64,000 nt of DNA from a virus (IMGVR_UViG_3300037067_006044:1-64000), one strand, 5' to 3'. Shown: positions 1 to 52,190, numbered from the stretch's first letter. Program-made: numbers and translations. Notes: generated from the letters alone by a model not told the origin.

Positions 1-125
1 TCTGACATTTGGTTTATTTCTGTTATTTCTTTGAGTTTTGAATCTAAGATTTGAAACCATTTTTGGGTTTTTTCTTTCTTTAAAATTTTAGCACTTAAAA
101 TCGATGTGATTTGTTTTGTTGTCAT
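1..125 (-). CDS. N-terminal part of a hypothetical protein running off the window edge (MTTKQITSILSAKILKKEKTQKWFQILDSKLKEITEINQMS...)
   Basis: ATG at 125-123, frame open to position 1; promoter-like motif at 190-199; not in the supplied ORF track. Confidence 0.7.
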   Translation of the reverse strand, partial: MTTKQITSILSAKILKKEKTQKWFQILDSKLKEITEINQMS

Positions 126-189
126 TCTTGTTACTGTGTTAATTGTTTATAATTTATTTATAAGTTAATCTGATTCTATTAACTTTGTA

Positions 190-199
190 TATAAATATA
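190..199 (-). promoter_or_regulatory. TATATTTATA putative phage promoter for the edge gene
   Basis: Same 10-mer precedes the tail tube gene and other units; its upstream context aaaaacatataaaaa is repeated at the 384-393 copy. Confidence 0.5.
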
Positions 200-239
200 A
201 AACAATTAAAAAAACATATAAAAAGTACAGTTTTTGTGT

Positions 240-274
240 AAAAAAAAAGAGTCAATAAATATATTATTGACTCT
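240..274 (-). terminator. Intrinsic terminator of sRNA 1
   Basis: 11-bp stem agagtcaataa/ttattgactct followed on the minus strand by a U tract (A run 240-248). Confidence 0.75.
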
Positions 275-380
275 GAAGTATATGTGTATTGGGTTTCGGT
301 ATAAGTATTTAGTAACACAGTAAATTTTATTCCTTACCATCTTAGAGAATCAATCCAAGACTTTTCCACCCAACTTATTT
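240..380 (-). ncRNA. Putative two-loop antisense sRNA 1 targeting the leader of the edge gene
   Basis: Non-coding and GC-richer; promoter 384-393; hairpin 340-360 with loop UUGAUUC; hairpin 307-325 carrying an 11-nt match to 131-141; outer stem 289-294/368-373; terminator 248-274. Confidence 0.6.
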
Positions 381-383
381 TAT

Positions 384-393
384 TATAAATATA
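384..393 (-). promoter_or_regulatory. TATATTTATA putative promoter for sRNA 1
   Basis: Motif and upstream context duplicated from 190-225. Confidence 0.5.
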
Positions 394-471: not shown

Positions 472-501
472 AAACTCTATAATTTATTAGTTATAGAGTT
501 T
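472..501. terminator. Terminator hairpin, AAACTCTA-TAGAGTTT family
   Basis: 11-bp stem aaactctataa/ttatagagttt downstream of 540..908. Confidence 0.7.
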
Positions 502-539: not shown

Positions 540-908
540 CTAATTATTTTTTGTCATTGTCATTAATGATTTTAAAAGTTTCATATTACCAGCATCTTTT
601 AATACAAAACTTGTTATTTTTCCTTCTCCACCATGTTTATCTTCTCTTACTGATATACCTAAAGTCTTAAATGTTTCTTTAAAAAATTCAAGAGCATCAT
701 TAGTATTTATTTCTACAAATCTTCTTTCTGGAGTATATTTTGCTATTACATCATTATTACAAATTACATTGAATATATGCTGACCATTATGGTCTTTTAT
801 TAATTTAAAAGTTGCATTTTGTATGTTAGTTTTCCAATCTTCTAAAATATATTGTTTTAATTCTTTAACAATTAAATTATCTATTGTTTCTATTAATGTT
901 TGTTTCAT
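540..908 (-). CDS. Hypothetical protein, possibly virion-internal
   Basis: 122 aa; N-terminus IDNLIVKEL resembles those of 929..1321 and 50089..50769. Confidence 0.6.
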   Translation of the reverse strand: MKQTLIETIDNLIVKELKQYILEDWKTNIQNATFKLIKDHNGQHIFNVICNNDVIAKYTPERRFVEINTNDALEFFKETFKTLGISVREDKHGGEGKITSFVLKDAGNMKLLKSLMTMTKNN

Positions 909-928
909 AGTTTTAATTATTGATTATT

Positions 929-1321
929 TTAGTATGTAAATATACAATTTGGTAGATATTTTTCTTTCCATTCTTTGACATCCTTGCTGCCATATATTTG
1001 TGTATCTTTCAATCTAACTTCTTTTAATTTTTTACAATATTTTAAATTTTCAATTGATTTTAATCCGACTAATGGATTTTTACTTAAATCTAAAAAATAT
1101 AAATCTTTTAAATGTTTAATTTGTTCCGGTATCATATTTAATTCATTATTACTTAAATCCAAAGTTTGTAAATCTGAATTAAATGTTTTTGGTGGAATCG
1201 ACTTTAAATTTTTATTTGACAAATCTAATGATTTTTTAAAATTTACTTCATTTCCAAATAGTTTACTCATAAAGTCATCTACACTTTCTTTTATTATTTT
1301 ATCTAAATATTCTTTTTTCAT
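929..1321 (-). CDS. Leucine-rich-repeat protein
   Basis: Repeated LxxLDLSxNxL units (SLDLSNKNL, TLDLSNNEL, FLDLSKNPL, EVRLKDTQI). Confidence 0.85.
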   Translation of the reverse strand: MKKEYLDKIIKESVDDFMSKLFGNEVNFKKSLDLSNKNLKSIPPKTFNSDLQTLDLSNNELNMIPEQIKHLKDLYFLDLSKNPLVGLKSIENLKYCKKLKEVRLKDTQIYGSKDVKEWKEKYLPNCIFTY

Positions 1322-6783: not shown

Positions 6784-6815
6784 TTTGTTTATTAATTTTA
6801 TTGTTATTATATTTG
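6784..6815 (+). promoter_or_regulatory. Bacteroidota sigma-A type promoter (TTTG-N20-TATATTTG)
   Basis: Matches the Bacteroidota -33/-7 consensus; 35 bp identical to copies at 31283-31317 and 53249-53283. Confidence 0.8.
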
Positions 6816-25208: not shown

Positions 25209-25397
25209 ATGAAAGAAACATTAATAGTATTATTTGTTTTTTATTGCATTCAAATATTAGTAATATCGGCAGTTGTTTTGGATGATAATAATAGAAATAC
25301 TTTTAAAAATAAATTAGAAATTCTATTATATTATATTCCATATAGTTGGATAGTTTTAATTGGAATTAAATTAATAAACAAAATAAAAGAATATTAA
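25209..25397 (+). CDS. Small membrane protein
   Basis: Two hydrophobic segments. Confidence 0.6.
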   Translation: MKETLIVLFVFYCIQILVISAVVLDDNNRNTFKNKLEILLYYIPYSWIVLIGIKLINKIKEY

Positions 25398-25400
25398 ATT

Positions 25401-26438
25401 ATGAACAACATATCAGCAAAAATTATAGCAGATTCTATCAATAAACGAGGAGATAGAATAACAACATTTCTTCTTACCTATCCAAGAATCATTCATGCAG
25501 AAGTAATGACTCATAGAATGTTTTCAAAGAACTCAAGTTCGAGTAGAGCAATTCCGTTTGAAAAAATGTTAGAAGAAGTTACAAATAATCCATTTATTCC
25601 AATTGCATTTCAAAAAACTCATAAAGGAATGCAAGGAAATGAATATTTTGATGATTATGAAAGTCATAAACAAATGGAAACAATTTGGTTAAAAGGAAGA
25701 GATAAATCAATTGAACAAGCTAAGAATTTAAATTCTGAAGGTGTTACAAAACAATTATGTAATAGATTATTAGAACCGTATTTATATCACACTATTTTAT
25801 TAACTGGTACTGATTTCAATAATTTCTTTGATTTACGATGTCCGAAATATGAAATATTAGATGGATATGGACAAATGAATTATTATAAAAGTAAAAATGA
25901 AATAATTAAAACTTATCCTTATTCACATTTCGAATCTAAATCTGTAAAATGGTTGAATATAAATAAATCACAAGCAGAAATACATATACAAGATTTATCA
26001 GAAAAAATGTATGACTGTTATAATGAAAATATCCCAACTCAATTACAAGAAGGAGAATGGCATATTCCATTTAATGATAAAATGAATGATTGTAAAATCA
26101 TATCAATGTTTGATAATTATAATACAATGGATGAAGGAGATGAACAATTGAATAAATTATTAGAATATAAAATTAAAATATCAACTGCAAGATGTGCAAG
26201 ATTAAGTTATATGACATTTGATAATGAAATAGATTATGAAAAAGATTTAGAATTACATAATAGATTATTAGAATCAAGGCATTACAGTCCTTTTGAACAT
26301 TGTTCTAAAACAATGACAGAAGAAGAATATAATAAATTCAGTAAAAAATATATTGATAAAAATGGAATAGAAACTGAAGAATTTGGTTGGTGTAGAAATT
26401 TTAAAGGATTTATTCAATATCGACATTTAATAGATTAA
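25401..26438 (+). CDS. thyX: Flavin-dependent thymidylate synthase
   Basis: YPRIIHAEVMTHRMFSKNSSSSRAIP, KQLCNRLLEP, NFFDLR, ARCARLSY, HYSPFEH. Confidence 0.9.
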   Translation: MNNISAKIIADSINKRGDRITTFLLTYPRIIHAEVMTHRMFSKNSSSSRAIPFEKMLEEVTNNPFIPIAFQKTHKGMQGNEYFDDYESHKQMETIWLKGRDKSIEQAKNLNSEGVTKQLCNRLLEPYLYHTILLTGTDFNNFFDLRCPKYEILDGYGQMNYYKSKNEIIKTYPYSHFESKSVKWLNINKSQAEIHIQDLSEKMYDCYNENIPTQLQEGEWHIPFNDKMNDCKIISMFDNYNTMDEGDEQLNKLLEYKIKISTARCARLSYMTFDNEIDYEKDLELHNRLLESRHYSPFEHCSKTMTEEEYNKFSKKYIDKNGIETEEFGWCRNFKGFIQYRHLID

Positions 26439-26455
26439 TTTTAAATATAAATAAC

Positions 26456-26704
26456 ATGAAAAAGAAATTAGAAGAAGTTGAAGCATTAAAAACTGCTAAT
26501 TCAGACATTCAAAAAGAAAAAGGAAAATCAATTAATTTTAATACTCAATCTGAAGAATATTTAGAAGAATTTTATGATGACAGAAATTCTACTAAAGAAG
26601 ATGTTTTCTATGAAGAAGGAGACGGAATGTTTGAAATATTTTGGAAAAAATTAACAAGAAAAATTAATAAAAAAAATTATAATTTAAAAACAAATTTAAT
26701 ATGA
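26456..26704 (+). CDS. Hypothetical protein with FEIFWKKL module
   Basis: Shares its C-terminal module with the next gene. Confidence 0.6.
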   Translation: MKKKLEEVEALKTANSDIQKEKGKSINFNTQSEEYLEEFYDDRNSTKEDVFYEEGDGMFEIFWKKLTRKINKKNYNLKTNLI

Positions 26705-26925
26705 AACTTTTTAAAATTGGTGACAAATGTAAATGCAAATTGAAAGACGGAACTATTGAAAAATTCGAAATAATATCGATTGAAAAAGAACAAGAAAAAT
26801 ATATAGCAATAAAAGAAGAAACTAAAGAGAAAATTGCATGTTATTTTAATTGCACAATAGCAAAACAAAATATATTTGAAATATTTTGGAAGAAATTAAT
26901 AAGAAAGATAAACAAAAGAAAATAA
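26701..26925 (+). CDS. Hypothetical protein with FEIFWKKL module
   Basis: ATGA overlap; FKIGDKC start. Confidence 0.6.
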   Translation: MKLFKIGDKCKCKLKDGTIEKFEIISIEKEQEKYIAIKEETKEKIACYFNCTIAKQNIFEIFWKKLIRKINKRK

Positions 26926-26927
26926 TT

Positions 26928-27153
26928 ATGAAAAAAATATTATTAATAATTTTATTCGAAATATTATTAACTAATTGTACTGATAGAATTTGAAATAGTT
27001 GACACTTTAAATATAAATAAAAATGGATTTGCAGAATTACTTAGTATTGATATTTTATTAAAAATAGACACAACATCAAATATTTATTTTGGTAAAATAG
27101 ATAATCAAGGAAATTTAATTTATTTTAATCCTAAAGCAATAAAAATTAAATAA
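26928..27153 (+). pseudogene. Frameshifted lipoprotein-like gene
   Basis: MKKILLIILFEILLTNC (lipobox-like) stops early; another frame continues EIVDTLNINKNG...YFNPKAIKIK. Confidence 0.4.
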
Positions 27154-27155
27154 AT

Positions 27156-27341
27156 ATGTTGAAATTTGAAGAAATAATGTCTTTGGATATTTGTAGAAAT
27201 GTATGTATCAGAAATATTGAAAGAATATCCAATATAGAAAATAAAGATGAAAATAGAAATCCATTTGATAATATTCAAGTTTGGAAAAATAAATTAAATT
27301 TAATAGAAGACAGATTAAATCAATTAGTTCTTACTCTTTAA
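27156..27341 (+). CDS. Hypothetical protein
   Basis: Operon packing. Confidence 0.55.
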   Translation: MLKFEEIMSLDICRNVCIRNIERISNIENKDENRNPFDNIQVWKNKLNLIEDRLNQLVLTL

Positions 27342-27529
27342 AATAAATAAATATGAAATGTACAGTTTGTAGAAAACAAATATTAAATGAATCATACCAA
27401 ATAAAAATAAATTCTGATGTAGTCGTATGTTCTAAAGAATGCTTAGATTATTATAATAAAACTAAAAATGATATTGATTTTGGAGAAGATATAAGAGATA
27501 TTATTAATAATCAATTCGATTTCTAAATA

Positions 27530-28129
27530 ATGAAAATATTAGAAAAGGCAATTAGATTTATAATCGAAAATAATAAAGGAAATTATAATTCATATCATAA
27601 TTATGAACATCTTTTAACTGTTTATAATTCAGTAATGGAAATAGCTCAAAATGAATTATTTTCAAATAAATTAGAATCAAATAAAACAATATTAGAATTA
27701 TCATCTTTATTTCACGATTTTAATCATTTAGGAATAAAAACGGATGACCAAAATAATATAGATTTAGCAATAGAAGGATTTGAACAATTTTATAATCAAA
27801 ATAAAGAAGAAATAACAGAATCACAAAAATCAGAAATTATAAGATTAATCCAATCAACAAAATTTCCATATAATGAAAACTCAAACGATATTTTAATTAA
27901 TATTATTAGAGATGCTGATATGAGTTCTTTATTTAAAGACAATTTTATTTTTACTGGTGTATTTGGATTAGCAAAAGAATTTAATATTGATATAAAGCAA
28001 CAAGTTAAAAATCAAATTAAATTTCTAAACAATATTCGATTTAATACTAAATACTGTATTAAGAAATGGTATGAAATTTATAGTTATAAAATAGGAGAAT
28101 TAATTGAATTAGATAATTTATTAACTTAA
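27530..28129 (+). CDS. HD-domain phosphohydrolase with PDEase-like signature
   Basis: YHNYEH, LFHDFNH, IRDADM. Confidence 0.85.
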   Translation: MKILEKAIRFIIENNKGNYNSYHNYEHLLTVYNSVMEIAQNELFSNKLESNKTILELSSLFHDFNHLGIKTDDQNNIDLAIEGFEQFYNQNKEEITESQKSEIIRLIQSTKFPYNENSNDILINIIRDADMSSLFKDNFIFTGVFGLAKEFNIDIKQQVKNQIKFLNNIRFNTKYCIKKWYEIYSYKIGELIELDNLLT

Positions 28130-28444
28130 AAAAATATAAATATTATGGAATGGAAAGATAAACATATTTATTAAATGAAAAATTAAATGAAGAATTATAT
28201 AATAGTTCTGATAAAACAAGAGTAATATCAAAGTTTTTATTATTTCCTAAATGTATTAATGGTGTTTGGAAATGGTTAGAAAGAGTAAATATAAAACAAT
28301 CATTTTATAAATATCAAACTGAACATTATGATTATATTTATGAATGGAATGATGATGATTGGTGTTAATAATAAAAAATGTTGTTTATTATACACATTTC
28401 TAACGATTCTGTTGAAAATAAACAACATTTTATAAAAACAAAAT

Positions 28445-29194
28445 ATGAGTAATCAAATTATTTTAGGAGATGCACTTACTTCTCTTTCACAATTTCCAAA
28501 TGGTTATTTTAATTCTATTATTTCAGATATTCCATATTTTGTTTTAAAGAATGTTGGTTGGGATAATCAATGGAAATCATTAGATGAATATTTATTATTT
28601 ATGGATAAAATATTCTTAGAATATAAAAGAATAATTAAAGAAGACGGAAATCTTTTTATCTTTACTGGAAGACAATATAATAGACACATCTGTATGTTGC
28701 TTGATAAATACTTTATTGAACAAAGAATTATTATTTGGAGTAGAAAAAGATTTAATGAAACAAGAGGTAAAGCATTAAGTAGTGGATATGAACCAATTTG
28801 TTTCTATTCTAATTCTTCAGATTTTACATTTAATAATATCAAAATAAAAGTTGAAAGTGATAGAAAAGAATATACCACTGGAATATTAAAAGACGGAATT
28901 AATTTAAGTGATGTTTGGAACGATATTCCTGCTCTTCCTCATAATTCTAAAGAAAGAATAAAAGAACATCCAAGTCAAAAACCAATTAATTTTATTAAAA
29001 GAATATTAGAAATTGGTACTAATGAAAATGATATTGTATTGGATAATTTTGCTGGAACTGGTACTCTTGGCGATGCTTGTTTGGATATGAATAGAAACTT
29101 TGTACTTATTGATAATAATGAAGAATATATCAATATAATAAATAAAAGAATAAACTCAAATAAAACTAAGAATGAATTATTTGAGTTTAATTAA
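28445..29194 (+). CDS. N4/N6 DNA methyltransferase, beta class
   Basis: DIPY, HPSQKP, DNFAGTGT; ends KNELFEFN. Confidence 0.9.
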   Translation: MSNQIILGDALTSLSQFPNGYFNSIISDIPYFVLKNVGWDNQWKSLDEYLLFMDKIFLEYKRIIKEDGNLFIFTGRQYNRHICMLLDKYFIEQRIIIWSRKRFNETRGKALSSGYEPICFYSNSSDFTFNNIKIKVESDRKEYTTGILKDGINLSDVWNDIPALPHNSKERIKEHPSQKPINFIKRILEIGTNENDIVLDNFAGTGTLGDACLDMNRNFVLIDNNEEYINIINKRINSNKTKNELFEFN

Positions 29195-32279: not shown

Positions 32280-34745
32280 TTAATATACAAATTCATCTGA
32301 ATATTTTAATGGTAAATTAGAATATAAATCAGTAGTACAATTATTTCTTAATGTTCTATTCCTGCCTATTGCTTGTACTATTTCAGATTCTATTAATGAT
32401 AATTGTATTTCTCTTAATTTTTGATGTTGAAAAGTATTAAATTTAAATCTAAAATTATTCCATTCTATTAATTGATATTCTGTTGCTGTTTGAGTATCTG
32501 CTGGAGATAATGATATTCCTAATGCACTTGCATAAAAGAAATAAACCATATTAGGTTTATGATCGGTTCCTACAACTGCAATATTTTTTCCCGTTAAATT
32601 ATTATAACCAGAACAATTTCCAAAGTGCATATTTTTTACAGGATTATCAAACTCATCTTTAAATTCTTGAAATGTTATTGTTGGTAAATTTCCTACTAAT
32701 TTTTTTATTTGATTAACATAAGTTTTTAATCCTTGTCTTGAACATGAATGTTTAGTATGTTGAGTTATTTTACCTACTTGTTCTACATTATCAATTTCTA
32801 TTATTTCTAATCTGTCACCAAACATTTCTTTATAGATTGCAATAGGAGCAGTTGCACTCATTATAACTATCTTTTTGTCTGCTGGTAAATCTGCTTTAGT
32901 TATAAACCATATTTCAGAAGGATTATGTAATGGTTTAAATACAAACTTAGAATGTAGAAATTTTAATATTTTAATTTTATTTAATTTAGCTGCAATAGGA
33001 ATAACTTTATCATATTTAAAAGCAAAACTTTTTGTTGGTTCTATACATTCATGTAGCATATTGTGTAACCAATTAAATATTTCTTTAAATTGTTCGTCTA
33101 ATTCAGTATTAAAAAATGAAAAAATATCATTTATAGTTATTTTATCTATTTTTAATACTTGTTGAATTGGGTCTTCATCAAATATAATAGTATTATGATT
33201 AGAACCATATATTCCTCTTGCATGAGTTGTTAAAACTGTATTCTTACTTTTAAAACAATCATTTATCTCATTAATATACTTTTTAGCAAGAATTACATCG
33301 TTTGAATCATATATTATTTCTACATTGACTTTAGTTAAGATTTGTTTTTTATTCGATATATTGGATATTAATTTATATACATCTGATACTAATCCTTCTT
33401 CATATAATGTAGTTATATATTTGTTTATTATATTATTTTTAAAAATTGGTAATCTTGGTATCTTCTTTACATTTGGTATTTTCATTCTATCAAATATTTC
33501 ATCTTTTAAATTGTGAGTTGGTAGAGCAATTAAACAATTTTCTGCATATTCTAATAGAGTTGTTTTACCTAAACCAGTTACAACTTTAAATAAATAAACT
33601 TTTGTGTCATCTGAATTCATTACTCTGTCAAATTCAGTCTTTAATTTATTTCCTGCTTCCATAAGTGGTATTTTTTTAATTATTTTATTTATATCAATTA
33701 TATCTATTCTTCCTTTTCTCCATTTATCAACATTAAGAATATTTGAATAATTCCAATCCGATTTATAAGGACTGAAATTTATTAGTGATTGTGGAGAATA
33801 TTTTTGTTTCTGTATATAAGGTATTATTGCATAATTGTTTGGTGTATAAAATGTTAATCCTAATTCATTATACTTATTCAATACTTTTTTAAATACTTTT
33901 AATCCACCATTAATCCAATATAAATTTGTTGCCAATCCAAATAATTGGTTGTGATGTAACCATTTTCCATCTAAAAAATCTTTAAAAATATTAATATTTA
34001 AATATGCTTTATCAAAATTATAATGTTGAATTATTTTAAACTTTGAATTATTTTCATTAATCTGTATTAAGGCAGTATCTTCTATATAATCAGTATAAGA
34101 GTTAATGTCTAAATACATATTATTTTTAGTTGAATCATAACATAGTCTGGTTCTATTTTTATCGTCTGCAATAACAAAAAGATTTAAAATATTTATAACA
34201 TTTTCTAAATTATTTAATTCTTCATTTCTATATATTTCAGATTTACCACCATGAAACATCCTTGCAAAATCCTTACATTGAGTATCTCTTCTTGGAAACA
34301 TTTTAAAAAAATTGTCGTATAGAAATGTTCTTAGTTTTTTGTCTTCAACAGTTGTATCAAATGCAATAATACCTCTAAACTTTCTTAATGCCGGACTATC
34401 ACTAAATGTACCATAAACAAGATTCGGAATTATTCCATTTCTTTTACAATCTTCTATAAATTCTTCCGGTGTATAGCCATCATCAAAATCAAGAGTAACC
34501 ATGTCTTGAGCTAACCAATTTATATTATTTCTTTTACTGTGAAAATAAACACCTGGTGACCATGTAAATCCATTGTCTTGGGTAGGATTAATTGTAGTAT
34601 CATTTACCACAATCCAACTTAATTCTTCCATATTGTGGATTTCTATTCCACTTCTAAAACCATTTGATATAATTCCTATTTCTTCATCTTCTGGTTTAAC
34701 ACTTCGTTTAAAGTCCGAATTGACTGAAATCAACATTTGTCTCAT
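32280..34745 (-). CDS. AEP-like primase domain fused to an SF2-like helicase/ATPase domain
   Basis: N-terminal LDFDD, YGTFS, KFRG, DFARMF; C-terminal TGLGKTT, IIFDEDP, MSATAP, QAIGRNR. Confidence 0.75.
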   Translation of the reverse strand: MRQMLISVNSDFKRSVKPEDEEIGIISNGFRSGIEIHNMEELSWIVVNDTTINPTQDNGFTWSPGVYFHSKRNNINWLAQDMVTLDFDDGYTPEEFIEDCKRNGIIPNLVYGTFSDSPALRKFRGIIAFDTTVEDKKLRTFLYDNFFKMFPRRDTQCKDFARMFHGGKSEIYRNEELNNLENVINILNLFVIADDKNRTRLCYDSTKNNMYLDINSYTDYIEDTALIQINENNSKFKIIQHYNFDKAYLNINIFKDFLDGKWLHHNQLFGLATNLYWINGGLKVFKKVLNKYNELGLTFYTPNNYAIIPYIQKQKYSPQSLINFSPYKSDWNYSNILNVDKWRKGRIDIIDINKIIKKIPLMEAGNKLKTEFDRVMNSDDTKVYLFKVVTGLGKTTLLEYAENCLIALPTHNLKDEIFDRMKIPNVKKIPRLPIFKNNIINKYITTLYEEGLVSDVYKLISNISNKKQILTKVNVEIIYDSNDVILAKKYINEINDCFKSKNTVLTTHARGIYGSNHNTIIFDEDPIQQVLKIDKITINDIFSFFNTELDEQFKEIFNWLHNMLHECIEPTKSFAFKYDKVIPIAAKLNKIKILKFLHSKFVFKPLHNPSEIWFITKADLPADKKIVIMSATAPIAIYKEMFGDRLEIIEIDNVEQVGKITQHTKHSCSRQGLKTYVNQIKKLVGNLPTITFQEFKDEFDNPVKNMHFGNCSGYNNLTGKNIAVVGTDHKPNMVYFFYASALGISLSPADTQTATEYQLIEWNNFRFKFNTFQHQKLREIQLSLIESEIVQAIGRNRTLRNNCTTDLYSNLPLKYSDEFVY

Positions 34746-34826
34746 ACTGACGTTTTTAAATTGTTTTTAATTTTTATATTATAGTATTTTAATAAAAAAG
34801 AAATCTGAACACTTTCTTTTCTTATA

Positions 34827-34836
34827 TATAAATATA
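34827..34836 (-). promoter_or_regulatory. TATATTTATA putative promoter for the primase-helicase mRNA
   Basis: Lies between the sRNA 2 terminator and the leader hairpin 34796-34820. Confidence 0.5.
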
Positions 34837-34856
34837 AAAATTAAAAATTTTTATTA

Positions 34857-34960
34857 AATAAAAATAGCCGAAATAAATCCGGCTATGAAATCAAATATTA
34901 AAACGTCAGTAAAAATATCCAATTTTTAAAATCTTGAAGGATGTTCAGTCCCCTTTATAT
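34857..34960 (-). ncRNA. Putative two-loop antisense sRNA 2 targeting the primase-helicase leader
   Basis: Promoter 34962-34971; hairpin 34937-34955 with loop CUGAACA; hairpin 34888-34925 with loop containing UACUGACGUUUU; terminator 34864-34886. Confidence 0.65.
34860..34886 (-). terminator. Intrinsic terminator of sRNA 2
   Basis: GC-rich stem atagccg/cggctat followed by a U tract on the minus strand. Confidence 0.75.
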
Positions 34961-35051
34961 CTATAAATATAATAAAAATATAAAAAAAATAAATATTATA
35001 ACAAATAAAAATTTAAACATTTTATATTTATAATTAAAAAATAAATAGTTT

Positions 35052-36158
35052 ATGATTCAAAACATAAAATCACCAACAGAATTAAGTGGATTCTACATTG
35101 TTTTCAATGGTTCTGTTCAAAATGAAAAACCAGGAATAAGAGGAATAAGTCATTTAATGGAACATTTGATATATAAAGGAAATGAAAAATTATACAATAT
35201 ATTTTCCGGTTTAGCTGTAAATGGAAACGCATTTACTTCATCAAATATCGTTGTATTTCACATTACAGGATTAGATCAATTCATAGACAAGTACAAATAT
35301 TCATTTTTAAAGAATCTAAGTAAATTTAATATTACAGAAAAGCAATTTCAAAATGAAAAGAATATAGTAATACAAGAATACTTTGATTTCTTTAATGAAC
35401 AATCATATAGACATCATGATAATCTATTAAGAAAATATTTAAATTTTTATGGAGCAATAGGAAGTTTAAATGATTTAAAGAATTTAAAGTTAGAAGATTG
35501 TTATGATTATTTTGATAAGTTTTTTAAAAATCCAACTCAAATAATAAATATAAGTAAGAATCATCCATTTGAAGAAAGTATTAATTTCGAAGATAAAAAA
35601 CAATACCCAAATCCAGTTTTATCAGAATATAAGAATGTAGAAATAGATTATAAGAATAATCATGATAAGACATCAGTAATGTATTTTAGTGATGTAGTAA
35701 CAAATGATTTTGCAATAATTAATTTTATTTGTTTAATGTTGGGAAATGGATTAAATAGTCCATTATATGAATTAGTAAGAGAAAGATATGGATTAGTATA
35801 TCATATAGAAATAGGATTAGAACAATTGACTAATAATAGTGGGATTATTCTTATCAATACATTAACTGATAATGTTATGAATGCACAAAAGATACAAGTA
35901 ATATTAAATCACATATTAGATAATCCAAAGAAATATTTAACTGAAGAAAGATTTAATAATCAAAGAAGATTAGTAAAGATAGAATTGGCAAAAGAAAATA
36001 TAAATAGGTATGCTAATTTTGAACATCTTTTAAATGATAAAACTTGGGATATTAAGAATTATATTGATAGAATAACAATGGAAGATATATATAGAATATA
36101 TAATAAATATTTTAAATCATTCAAACAATCAATTGACAAAATAGAATTTAATAAATAA
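35052..36158 (+). CDS. M16 family zinc peptidase
   Basis: GISHLMEH (HxxEH), NAFTS, EKNIVIQE, LYELVRERYGLVY. Confidence 0.9.
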   Translation: MIQNIKSPTELSGFYIVFNGSVQNEKPGIRGISHLMEHLIYKGNEKLYNIFSGLAVNGNAFTSSNIVVFHITGLDQFIDKYKYSFLKNLSKFNITEKQFQNEKNIVIQEYFDFFNEQSYRHHDNLLRKYLNFYGAIGSLNDLKNLKLEDCYDYFDKFFKNPTQIINISKNHPFEESINFEDKKQYPNPVLSEYKNVEIDYKNNHDKTSVMYFSDVVTNDFAIINFICLMLGNGLNSPLYELVRERYGLVYHIEIGLEQLTNNSGIILINTLTDNVMNAQKIQVILNHILDNPKKYLTEERFNNQRRLVKIELAKENINRYANFEHLLNDKTWDIKNYIDRITMEDIYRIYNKYFKSFKQSIDKIEFNK

Positions 36159-48985: not shown

Positions 48986-49762
48986 TTATAAAAACGTCTC
49001 ATTTTTCATGTTTATTTTCTCATCTTTACATTTAAGAATATTGTCTTCTGATTCAAATATACCATAATTTTCAATCATTTCAATTAATTCTTTTAAATAT
49101 AAATTAAGATGATAAATATCAGTAGAAGATAATTGTTTTCTATTTATAAAATATGATAGTTGATAATGATTTTCAAGCAATGTTTTCTTTTCATAAATTT
49201 CAATATCATACTTAACAAGAGAAATATTCTGAGCTATGTAGAATGCTAATACTTTCCAAATATCGACATCTTTCATATTTCTTTGATTAAATTCTTTTAT
49301 AGAAGCGAAATCAATCTGTTTTAAAGCATCTAATTTCAAATAAAAATCATGACAACTATTAAGAATTGGTTTAACTATTGTTCTATAATGACTTCTACTC
49401 AACATTGCAAGAATAGTTCTAACTGTTTTATAAATAGCTAATAATTTGCTTCTTTTAACCATCCCTTTAATTGGTAATTCATATTTCTGTTTATCTAAAT
49501 GATTTTTATAAGTGATAAATAAACTATTGTTTAATGAATCAATCCAAGATTTAGGGTAAATAGTATCAGAAATATAACCATTTTCTATAACAATAAGATT
49601 AGAATTCCAATTAAAATTATATTCCGTTTCTATTTGTTTTAAATATTGTTTTCTTTCTTCTTGAGTAGAAGACATTTGTTCTTTAGATATTTCAATTAAA
49701 ACATCTAAATCTAATGAATCTTCTGAACCATAGAAGAAATATTTAAAAGGAAAATTATTCAT
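48986..49762 (-). CDS. Putative nucleotidyltransferase-fold protein
   Basis: N-terminal FFYGSEDSLDLDVL resembles the Pol-beta GS...DxD motif with short spacing. Confidence 0.5.
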   Translation of the reverse strand: MNNFPFKYFFYGSEDSLDLDVLIEISKEQMSSTQEERKQYLKQIETEYNFNWNSNLIVIENGYISDTIYPKSWIDSLNNSLFITYKNHLDKQKYELPIKGMVKRSKLLAIYKTVRTILAMLSRSHYRTIVKPILNSCHDFYLKLDALKQIDFASIKEFNQRNMKDVDIWKVLAFYIAQNISLVKYDIEIYEKKTLLENHYQLSYFINRKQLSSTDIYHLNLYLKELIEMIENYGIFESEDNILKCKDEKINMKNETFL

Positions 49763-50820: not shown

Positions 50821-51450
50821 TTATATTGTATTTGATTTTAATGACGATTCATTATATGATAATGCAATATTATCATAAATATAATTGTTAAAATCTAAAT
50901 AATTTTTAGCTTTATATAAATCATTTAAATGAACAATAAAACAATCAACATCATGATAATAAACATTTATATTTAATTGTTTTAAATCATTAATTAAATT
51001 TAAAAATTCAGTCTGAAAAATATTTGGATTATCTAATTTTATATATAATTTATTAATTAATAATGCACTTATTGTAGAATTTAATAGCAATTTTAATTTA
51101 AAACTATTATCAAAATCTTTATCTTTTTTAAATTCTTTTTGCAATTCTACTAATTCCATTAAAACAGTTTCAAAATCAAAACAATTAAAATTAATAATAT
51201 TATCATTTATAATTTTAAAAAATAATTGATTAATAGTTATTAAACAATATTCTGATTTGTCATAATTTTTGGGTAATAAATTTAGTACTTTAAATTTTTC
51301 AAATGGAATTGACCTAATATTATTATTAATTGTTAATCCTAAATTAATATAAAATTGATTAATATTTTCTACAGAAATTTCACTTTTCCAACTATTAAAT
51401 GAATTTGGAAATTTTTTTAATAATTCAAAAACTAATTCTTTTTTTAACAT
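50821..51450 (-). CDS. Degenerate family B DNA polymerase palm-like protein
   Basis: KLLLNS (motif B-like) and YYHDVDCFIV (YGDTDS-like). Confidence 0.45.
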   Translation of the reverse strand: MLKKELVFELLKKFPNSFNSWKSEISVENINQFYINLGLTINNNIRSIPFEKFKVLNLLPKNYDKSEYCLITINQLFFKIINDNIINFNCFDFETVLMELVELQKEFKKDKDFDNSFKLKLLLNSTISALLINKLYIKLDNPNIFQTEFLNLINDLKQLNINVYYHDVDCFIVHLNDLYKAKNYLDFNNYIYDNIALSYNESSLKSNTI

Positions 51451-51479
51451 ATCATTATTTATTTGATTATATAATTATT

Positions 51480-51872
51480 TTAAAATAAATTTTTAAGAAA
51501 TTCTATTCCATCTGAATTATAAAGTTTTAAATTGCATATTTCTTTATTATACTTTCTACATTTAATTATCCAATTCTTAGCAGTCGAAATATTTAATGAT
51601 TCAAAATAATAATTCTTGCTATCTATTTGTGCTTTCATTGTTTCAGGATCAAACATTATCCATCCTTTCTCAAAAGTATTTGCTATCTGAATAGTATTAG
51701 ATTTATTTATAATAATTTCTTTAATTTCTTCATTTGTAGGATTAAAAGAAAATAATTTATATCCTTTATTTAAAACATATGTTCCTAATATCAGATATTC
51801 TTTTTTCTTTTCTTCAACTTGCTCTATTTCATTTTTAAAAATAGAATCTGGTTTAATTATATCTAAATTCAT
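51480..51872 (-). CDS. Hypothetical protein
   Basis: Operon packing. Confidence 0.65.
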   Translation of the reverse strand: MNLDIIKPDSIFKNEIEQVEEKKKEYLILGTYVLNKGYKLFSFNPTNEEIKEIIINKSNTIQIANTFEKGWIMFDPETMKAQIDSKNYYFESLNISTAKNWIIKCRKYNKEICNLKLYNSDGIEFLKNLF

Positions 51873-51884
51873 TATACAGATATA

Positions 51885-52190
51885 TTATAATAAAAATAAA
51901 TCAAATTTAAATTCATTTAAAATGTCTTTTAACATATCATCTATTTTTTGTCCATCGCCACATGTTTTATATCCACCTGTATAATATGTTAAAGTTTCTT
52001 TATTAGATATTAATCGTTCTAATACAGTTATACAAGTTCTTTTGTCTATTTTTAATAATAACTTATTTTTTATATCATCTTTTGAATATTGTATAATGTC
52101 TAATTTTTTATTACATTCTAATAATCTTAAACACGATTCATTTAACAATGTTTCTCTATGTTCTAATTGCATTTCATATATACTTGCCAT
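51885..52190 (-). CDS. Hypothetical protein
   Basis: Operon packing. Confidence 0.6.
   Translation of the reverse strand: MASIYEMQLEHRETLLNESCLRLLECNKKLDIIQYSKDDIKNKLLLKIDKRTCITVLERLISNKETLTYYTGGYKTCGDGQKIDDMLKDILNEFKFDLFLL

Follow-up and report, generated by a model that had tools for sequence, protein, structure and literature searches.

The window analysed here is the first 64 kb (64,000 nt) of a single virus record of 101,564 bp, with a G+C content of 20-22% across the whole contig and a gene content that includes phage replication genes. Close to its first nucleotide, the minus strand carries, in the 5'->3' direction, the gene 908..540 with its terminator, a promoter-like region (P1), a folded RNA segment, an intrinsic terminator, a second promoter-like region (P2), a leader hairpin, an A-rich leader and an ATG; we denote this arrangement cassette 1. 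Given that the upstream gene 908..540 has a terminator of its own (472..500, minus strand; a 10-bp stem of -8.7 kcal/mol, then a T run), cassette 1 appears to stand alone, insulated from upstream transcription. A gene for a small stand-alone leucine-rich-repeat protein (window 929-1321, minus strand; 130 aa; LRR_8, E 4e-11) adjoins cassette 1 and lies behind a TATATTTATA box, a motif described below with the promoter-like regions.

The putatively regulated ORF (3..125, minus strand) opens with the ATG at 125-123 and continues for 41 codons to the contig end. Its 41 known residues are lysine-rich and hydrophilic, and no homologue was found in PHROGs, in a set of 5.8 billion proteins (longer lengths) or in four related phage contigs. 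The contig shows no terminal repeats, and joining its ends, which yields a 50-aa edge ORF overlapping a convergent 61-aa ORF by ~80 nt, was rejected as implausible. Upstream of the ATG, the leader has a 5'-proximal hairpin (162..185, minus strand) with the loop AGAAUCAG (177-170; unpaired probability 0.99); 3' of this hairpin, the leader is unstructured and A-rich up to the ATG. Within this stretch, the target site UAACACAGUAA (131..141, minus strand) spans -16 to -6 relative to the start codon, which leaves 5 nt between it and the ATG, and is open in the leader alone, with an unpaired probability of 0.94.

Between P1 and P2 lies a candidate small RNA of ~130 nt (248..378, minus strand), the 5' end of which would fall a few nucleotides past P1 and the 3' end in the U tract of the terminator. 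The fold of the 139-nt stretch obtained with RNAfold has a minimum free energy of -32.9 kcal/mol (z = -3.6), and the RNA body forms a four-way junction (378-285) closed by an outer stem, 374-366/299-298 + 294-288. The first hairpin of the RNA (339..361, minus strand) presents the 7-nt kissing loop UUGAUUC (353-347), which is open (unpaired probability 0.88-1.0), and UUGAUUCU of the RNA pairs with the leader loop through 7 Watson-Crick pairs and one G-U. The anti-start-region 11-mer UUACUGUGUUA (313..323, minus strand) is the exact reverse complement of 141-131; in the free RNA, it is mostly paired, with a mean unpaired probability of 0.15. The intrinsic terminator (239..274, minus strand) has an 11-bp stem (274-264/258-248), a 5-nt loop and a U9 tract (247-239), and is among the 2 terminators detected by a scan for which 0.1 were expected in shuffled sequences.

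The initial annotation of this DNA had described most of these elements, and they are indeed there: the leader hairpin is a perfect 8-bp stem on the minus strand (185-178/169-162); the 7-bp hairpin of the RNA (360-354/346-340) has one G-U within its stem and is extended by RNAfold to 8 bp (361-354/346-339); the 8-nt loop-loop complement includes the single G-U that had been predicted; the outer stem (373-368/294-289), now lengthened, comprises 6 perfect base pairs; and the 11-bp terminator (stem 274-248) is followed by nine U. The 11-mer, which the same annotation had assigned to a second hairpin, is an 11/11 complement of its target; it is, however, split across two weak stems and is not displayed in a hairpin loop.

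No tRNA was detected at the RNA locus with ARAGORN, and no Rfam family reached the gathering score anywhere in the window; a permissive Rfam scan (E<=10) of 100-520 and 34700-35060 returned generic sub-threshold matches only, such as McaS with 24 bits against a threshold of 42. No ORF with any homologue is contained in the candidate RNA, consistent with a non-coding character. The predicted ~130-nt transcript has several attributes of trans-encoded base-pairing small RNAs, namely, a promoter-like box, an intrinsic terminator and a short, specific complement to a start region.

The two promoter-like regions are near-duplicates of each other. P1 (384..418, minus strand) consists of TTTTTATATGTTTTT (418-404), a 10-nt spacer and TATATTTATA (393-384), and P2 (190..224, minus strand) repeats this layout, with the identical 15-mer at 224-210, again 10 nt of spacing, and TATATTTATA at 199-190. 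The 15-mer has two exact occurrences in the window, 404-418 and 210-224, and TATATTTATA has 14 copies in the window compared to 6.7 expected; the more general motif TATATTT[AT]TA is found 13-36 nt 5' of many ATGs of the contig. These sequence patterns suggest that the boxes of P1 and P2 function as promoters, with transcription starting shortly downstream of each. The Bacteroidota promoter consensus is TTTG-N19-TAnnTTTG, with a near-invariant G in the -7 box TAnnTTTG that TATATTTATA lacks (PMC6847099). Near-identical copies of the canonical promoter, about 40 nt long, stand before many genes of the contig, with TTTG, a 19-nt spacer and TATATTTG located 20-34 nt before the gene starts, at 6808(+), 21346(-), 23429(-), 31292(-), 32116(-), 38805(-), 50024(-) and 53258(-). 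Other genes, and both cassettes of this phage, have the second class, TATATTT[AT]TA, which lacks the G; the two classes may be temporal promoter classes.

In DNA of 20% G+C, the surroundings of gene starts often contain complements of 11-15 nt made of A/T only; these swamp an unweighted longest-complement statistic, which was replaced by composition-weighted scores (in bits) and dinucleotide shuffles of the RNA. The start-region complement, with 20.4 bits, a score that is not exceptional genome-wide, is matched by 0.14% of the RNA dinucleotide shuffles (p = 0.0014; about 0.001-0.003). The loop complement is matched by 2.3% of the shuffles, or by 4.4% when the terminator is counted in the RNA; by itself, the loop-loop kiss is weakly significant (p = 0.02-0.04). 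Jointly, the two sites have a probability of about 3e-5 per gene. When all ORFs of the contig were ranked by the start-region complement upstream, the two cassettes came second and third, and in the subset of 30 ORFs preceded by 150 nt or more of intergenic sequence, no ORF had a lower p value than the two cassettes, and a third ORF equalled the second of them.

The pairing was further evaluated with an accessibility-corrected site model, in which the hybrid energy is combined with the cost of opening both sites. The best site of RNA 1 on the leader is the 11-mer with the start region (net -8.6 kcal/mol), followed by the loop 353-347 with 177-170 (hybrid -6.9, net -5.3 kcal/mol), and these energies were not approached by any of 100 shuffled leaders or any of 5 non-cognate leaders. 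When RNA 1 was compared with the 154 ORF start regions of the contig, the cognate gene ranked first, at -8.2 kcal/mol vs. -4.4 kcal/mol for the runner-up. The net binding energy calculated with RNAcofold shows no cognate advantage; this result was discounted, given that RNAcofold cannot pair hairpin loops between molecules. Duplex energies calculated on whole RNAs mainly reflected long, imperfect A/U duplexes and were uninformative. The two sites follow each other in the same 5'->3' order in the RNA and in the target RNA, which suits two independent contacts, not one continuous duplex.

A pattern search of viral contigs for both address sequences with a variable gap produced 29 matches, approximately the number expected by chance, none of them similar to RNA 1. 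No relative of cassette 1 itself was found, and the evidence of covariation comes from the other cassettes. A 14-nt copy of the hairpin arm and loop of RNA 1 (TCTTGGATTGATTC, minus strand) is present at 49536-49549 of the window, within the CDS 48986..49762 (minus strand; genome-wide chance p ~0.06).

Cassette 2 (34743..34971, minus strand), with its parts in the same order as in cassette 1, is located upstream of the gene for an 821-aa protein (window 32280-34745, minus strand). Here, the RNA loop CUGAACA is complementary to the leader hairpin loop UGUUCAG, and the 12-mer UACUGACGUUUU is complementary to AAAACGUCAGUA, which overlaps the AUG. Out of 5,000 shuffles, not one matched the start-site complement of cassette 2, the accessibility-corrected energies of the two sites are -10.2 and -7.0 kcal/mol, and among the 154 ORF start regions, RNA 2 ranks its own gene first (-10.5 vs. 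-4.4 kcal/mol). The 821-aa protein has no match in Pfam, among PHROGs with a function or to PDB sequences. Its AlphaFold model is confident (pLDDT 87); the C-terminal ~600 residues of the model match XPD/DinG-type SF2 helicases and the N-terminal ~190 residues match the archaeo-eukaryotic primase (AEP) domain of a cyanophage PrimPol. From these structural matches, the protein is predicted to be a PrimPol-helicase, an AEP domain fused to an XPD/DinG-like helicase. Its family is widespread, and unannotated, in Bacteroidota genomes and metagenome-assembled genomes (MAGs).

The same architecture was identified upstream of the closest homologues of the PrimPol-helicase (27-48% identical, on other contigs of ~20% G+C), with sequences that differ from one cassette to another and are matched within each. 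Beyond cassette 1, there are seven cassettes of this design, cassette 2 included, of which six have matched sequences of their own. Two (L024 and L025) belong to diverged paralogues on one 168-kb ENA contig and are each addressed to their own start codon; one (L027/G001), with self-matched sequence, lies upstream of a PrimPol-helicase homologue; and two on G004, which lack the leader hairpin, precede the paralogues 25329..27935 and 87834..90773, each addressed to its own start. L026 retains the architecture without convincing complementarity. The related phages of the 168-kb contig and of G004 have two diverged PrimPol-helicase paralogues each, with a separate RNA cassette upstream of each paralogue; the PrimPol-helicases under the sister cassettes are about 790-980 aa long. 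The edge gene next to cassette 1 was considered as a second such paralogue and rejected, as it does not fit the N-terminus of the family, its HMM score being no better than that of shuffled sequences (p = 0.64), and BLASTP returned nothing.

In a six-cassette matrix of start-codon complements, cognate pairs score 17-24 bits compared to at most 15.8 bits for non-cognate pairs; the pairing is specific in statistical as well as comparative terms. The complement overlaps the AUG in five other cassettes, and in that of the second G004 paralogue, it ends at or next to the AUG. By contrast, the loop-loop complement reaches p <=0.05 in 3 of the 6 cassettes tested (p = 0.044, 0.010 and 0.008) and is absent in the other 3. 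The core of the design is pairing with the start region, to which the kiss is a plausible accessory. A promoter-like box directly precedes the folded RNA in six cassettes, with a one-mismatch version in L027, and after the terminator, the exact TATATTTATA box is found in 5 of the 7 other cassettes, with variant boxes in L025 and L027.

Among 148 more distant loci of the 821-aa protein family, mostly from Bacteroidota genomes and MAGs, there was a slight excess of start-region complements, which indicates that the cassette is not general to the PrimPol-helicase gene family, and no cassette was identified in G002 and G003 by the start-region complement test. Given the recurrence in relatives of ~20% G+C and the absence in the wider family, we assign the design to one clade of AT-rich large phages. 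Other orphan terminators of the same contig (38873, 79239, 86418 and others) were inspected as further cassettes and rejected, having no matched leader.

Three other arrangements were recorded in passing. In the G000 contig, beyond the window (100772-100924), the gene 100925..101440 (plus strand) has a 10-nt complement, AAACAAAGAT/ATCTTTGTTT, in its region from -126 to -22, with a shuffle p of 0.0025; a terminator and a second promoter were not seen there. In G001 (51431-52020), the short G+C-containing complements GTTAGCCACA/TGTGGCTAAC and ATTTAGTGTTAT/ATAACACTAAAT connect coding sequence with the starts of the small genes that follow, in a layout that differs from that of the cassettes. At 28385-28440 of the window (plus strand), a perfect 15-bp hairpin, AAAATGTTGTTTATT/AATAAACAACATTTT, with a loop of ~27 nt ends ~13 nt before the ATG at 28445 and could be either a leader structure or the terminator of a small upstream ORF.

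Partial relatives of the phage measure 97-174 kb at an estimated completeness of 53-72%, values that make it probable that this is a group of jumbo phages. Homologues of one large protein of the contig are encoded in genomes of Chryseobacterium, Flavobacterium and other Bacteroidota, and together with the canonical Bacteroidota promoters before many genes, this makes it very likely that the host is a member of Bacteroidota. Searches of GenBank phages by megablast and tblastn yielded no match. Synteny was also explored through the neighbouring 5'-3' exonuclease and abandoned: none of the 23 related loci, with an identity of ~40% or less, has the same neighbours or a cassette.

We propose, with a probability of roughly 60%, that 378-248 (minus strand) encodes a small RNA that is dedicated to the next gene, stands in tandem with it and acts in trans to repress its translation initiation. 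The support for the proposal consists of the sequence elements, the folds, the statistics and the covariation of whole segments among cassettes, whereas the transcription start sites, the action in trans, the direction of the effect and the purpose of the RNA are inferred. Control by a small RNA had already been suggested in the initial annotation; the two-site pairing on which that suggestion was built is now backed by shuffles, specificity and analogous cassettes, whereas the emphasis is reversed, nearly all of the weight, statistical and comparative, lying with the 11-nt pairing and not with the kiss.

Under this proposal, the small RNA would be made from P1 and end at the strong intrinsic terminator, and the downstream gene would be transcribed separately from P2, giving an mRNA that begins with the hairpin and has an open start region. 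The open 7-nt loop of the RNA would make a fast loop-loop contact with the loop of the leader hairpin, nucleating the binding; the two weak internal stems would then open and the 11-mer would pair with positions -16 to -6, the resulting duplex preventing ribosome loading. In Bacteroidota, mRNAs are without Shine-Dalgarno sites and initiation needs an unstructured A-rich region 5' of the start codon; in Flavobacterium, both the adenines that lie before the start codon and the structure between -20 and +20 tune initiation (PMC6847099). Given this reliance on an unstructured A-rich upstream region, a duplex at -16 to -6 should stop ribosome loading, and because the target site is already open, the RNA can merely close it. 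The near-identity of P1 and P2, which fall in one class, implies that RNA and mRNA should be produced together; the RNA might then set a ceiling or a time limit on gene output, with inhibition growing with the copy number of the phage genome, a logic that would be appealing in the case of a replication protein.

With 170-180 nt between them on one strand, the complement and its target could pair within one molecule. Accordingly, the segment might be a cis-acting silencer: read-through transcripts from P1 or from upstream would fold back on the start region and go untranslated, only the mRNA from P2 would be active, and the short RNA would be a by-product. The G004 cassettes, in which the missing leader hairpin indicates that not every cassette requires the kiss, fit this scenario, which we nevertheless regard as unlikely: the terminator (11 bp + U9) is strong, little read-through is expected past the upstream gene's own terminator, the promoter-like box directly before the RNA in six cassettes is something that an insulator would not need, and open hairpin loops in both partners are typical of bimolecular recognition.

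A genuine leader-pairing RNA could also have another outcome, guiding processing or decay of the mRNA, or stabilising or activating it, and its main targets might even be those of the host. A leader with a 5' hairpin of the kind that protects mRNA ends, addressed by the loop of the RNA, is suggestive in this respect. Unmasking, however, is not needed in a start region with an unpaired probability of 0.94 in the absence of the RNA, pairing at or over the start codon is conserved in all cassettes except L026, and no other start region of the phage contig comes near the cognate one; we consider such an outcome improbable.

Chance complementarity in AT-rich DNA, next to an ordinary terminator and a duplicated promoter and without any functional RNA-RNA interaction, would account for the abundance of perfect A/T-only complements of 11-15 nt near starts at this composition, for a score of 20.4 bits that is unexceptional genome-wide, for a loop match that alone has p 0.02-0.04, and for the lack of a cognate advantage in RNAcofold, a program unsuitable here given that loop pairing cannot be represented in it. 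We give this explanation little credence in view of the joint probability of the two sites (~3e-5 per gene), of the cognate gene ranking first of 154 by a wide gap, and of the seven further cassettes, six of them self-matched. Inverted repeats acting at the DNA level, either as the flanks (131-141/313-323) of an invertible promoter segment or as paired protein-binding sites, are very improbable: although 11-bp inverted repeats do flank P2 and the terminator, with a like geometry in cassette 2, the repeat pairs alternate (A, B, A', B') instead of being nested, one repeat lies over the start codon in five other cassettes, as explained by occlusion by an RNA and not by inversion, each cassette would require a DNA-binding specificity of its own, and the loop-presenting hairpins would have no role.

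Taking the repressor proposal further, one can tentatively picture a clade of large Bacteroidota phages of ~20% G+C equipped with a module, portable and re-addressable, that is composed of a promoter, the small RNA, a terminator, another promoter and the leader, and in which the two addresses are rewritten in each gene copy; each PrimPol-helicase paralogue would thus have a private repressor, similar to plasmid copy control, and in this phage, the module would have been re-addressed to a second, unrelated gene. This generalisation is possible rather than probable. Few phage-encoded base-pairing RNAs have a known target, and in the literature and Rfam as searched, none is described for phages of Bacteroidota, whose hosts initiate without Shine-Dalgarno sequences. 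Each RNA appears to be wired to one adjacent gene, the wiring having been rewritten repeatedly in evolution with the architecture held constant, so that the cassettes would constitute a natural set of orthogonal RNA-target pairs. They also offer a clear test case for the blocking of Shine-Dalgarno-independent initiation by pairing upstream of the start codon, and point to a possible RNA-based control of the dosage or timing of phage replication proteins. For finding more such RNAs, the cassettes suggest a simple search rule: an orphan terminator between identical promoters, combined with a complement of the downstream start region.

Among known systems, riboswitches and attenuators differ from the cassette in that no Rfam cis-regulatory family was identified at the locus and that a second promoter-like box follows the terminator. 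In type I toxin-antitoxin systems, an antisense RNA restrains the mRNA of a toxic peptide that is small and, as a rule, hydrophobic. The initial annotation had suggested that tight control would fit a toxic or dosage-sensitive product; the 41 residues known of the edge gene, which might encode such a product, are lysine-rich and hydrophilic, and the sole identifiable target of the cassettes described here is a PrimPol-helicase replication protein, not a toxin.

The c4 RNA of phages P1 and P7 is encoded 5' of its target, in the same orientation, and has two short complementary stretches: one masks the ribosome-binding region, and the other, which pairs at a more upstream position, contributes specificity (PMC5320573). 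The candidate RNA resembles c4 antisense RNA (Rfam RF01695) in being a phage RNA on the same strand as its target, with two contact stretches that occur in the same order in RNA and target. Cassette 1 has the two stretches of the c4 type, yet only the loop site is exposed and the 11-mer is mostly paired. Unlike c4, which is cut by RNase P from the transcript that carries its target, the cassette RNA has a promoter-like box and a terminator, and its target has a second promoter-like box. The target of c4 is an antirepressor in the immunity region of temperate phages, whereas the identifiable target here is a PrimPol-helicase in large phages of Bacteroidota, without Shine-Dalgarno sequences. The C4 model (RF01695) had no match even in the permissive scan of a few hundred bases (100-520; 34700-35060), and with an anatomy (promoter-like boxes and a terminator) that argues against release by RNase P, as well as the different kind of target, the cassette RNA does not appear to belong to the C4 family.

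In Escherichia coli, the small RNA OxyS acts in trans on fhlA through two short kissing contacts with hairpin loops, one of which sequesters the ribosome-binding site (PMC2946933). Two separate short contacts on one mRNA are a feature common to this pair and the cassettes; the second contact, however, is in the coding region of fhlA, compared to the 5' leader hairpin here. OxyS is, moreover, a stress RNA of the host that has many targets, is assisted by Hfq and has its gene at a distance from fhlA, whereas the cassette RNA looks dedicated to the adjacent gene.

In plasmid copy control by CopA/CopT of R1 and RNA I/RNA II of ColE1, a loop-loop kiss is followed by extended pairing, and the RNA, produced in proportion to dosage, limits a replication protein. 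These antisense RNAs come from the strand opposite their targets, to which they are complementary throughout; the cassette RNA is encoded upstream, on the same strand, with complementarity over 11 + 8 nt only. Being on the strand of its target, it is not a cis-antisense RNA of the CopA, RNA I, Sok or OOP type. The dosage logic of plasmid copy control, nevertheless, fits the PrimPol-helicase target of cassette 2.
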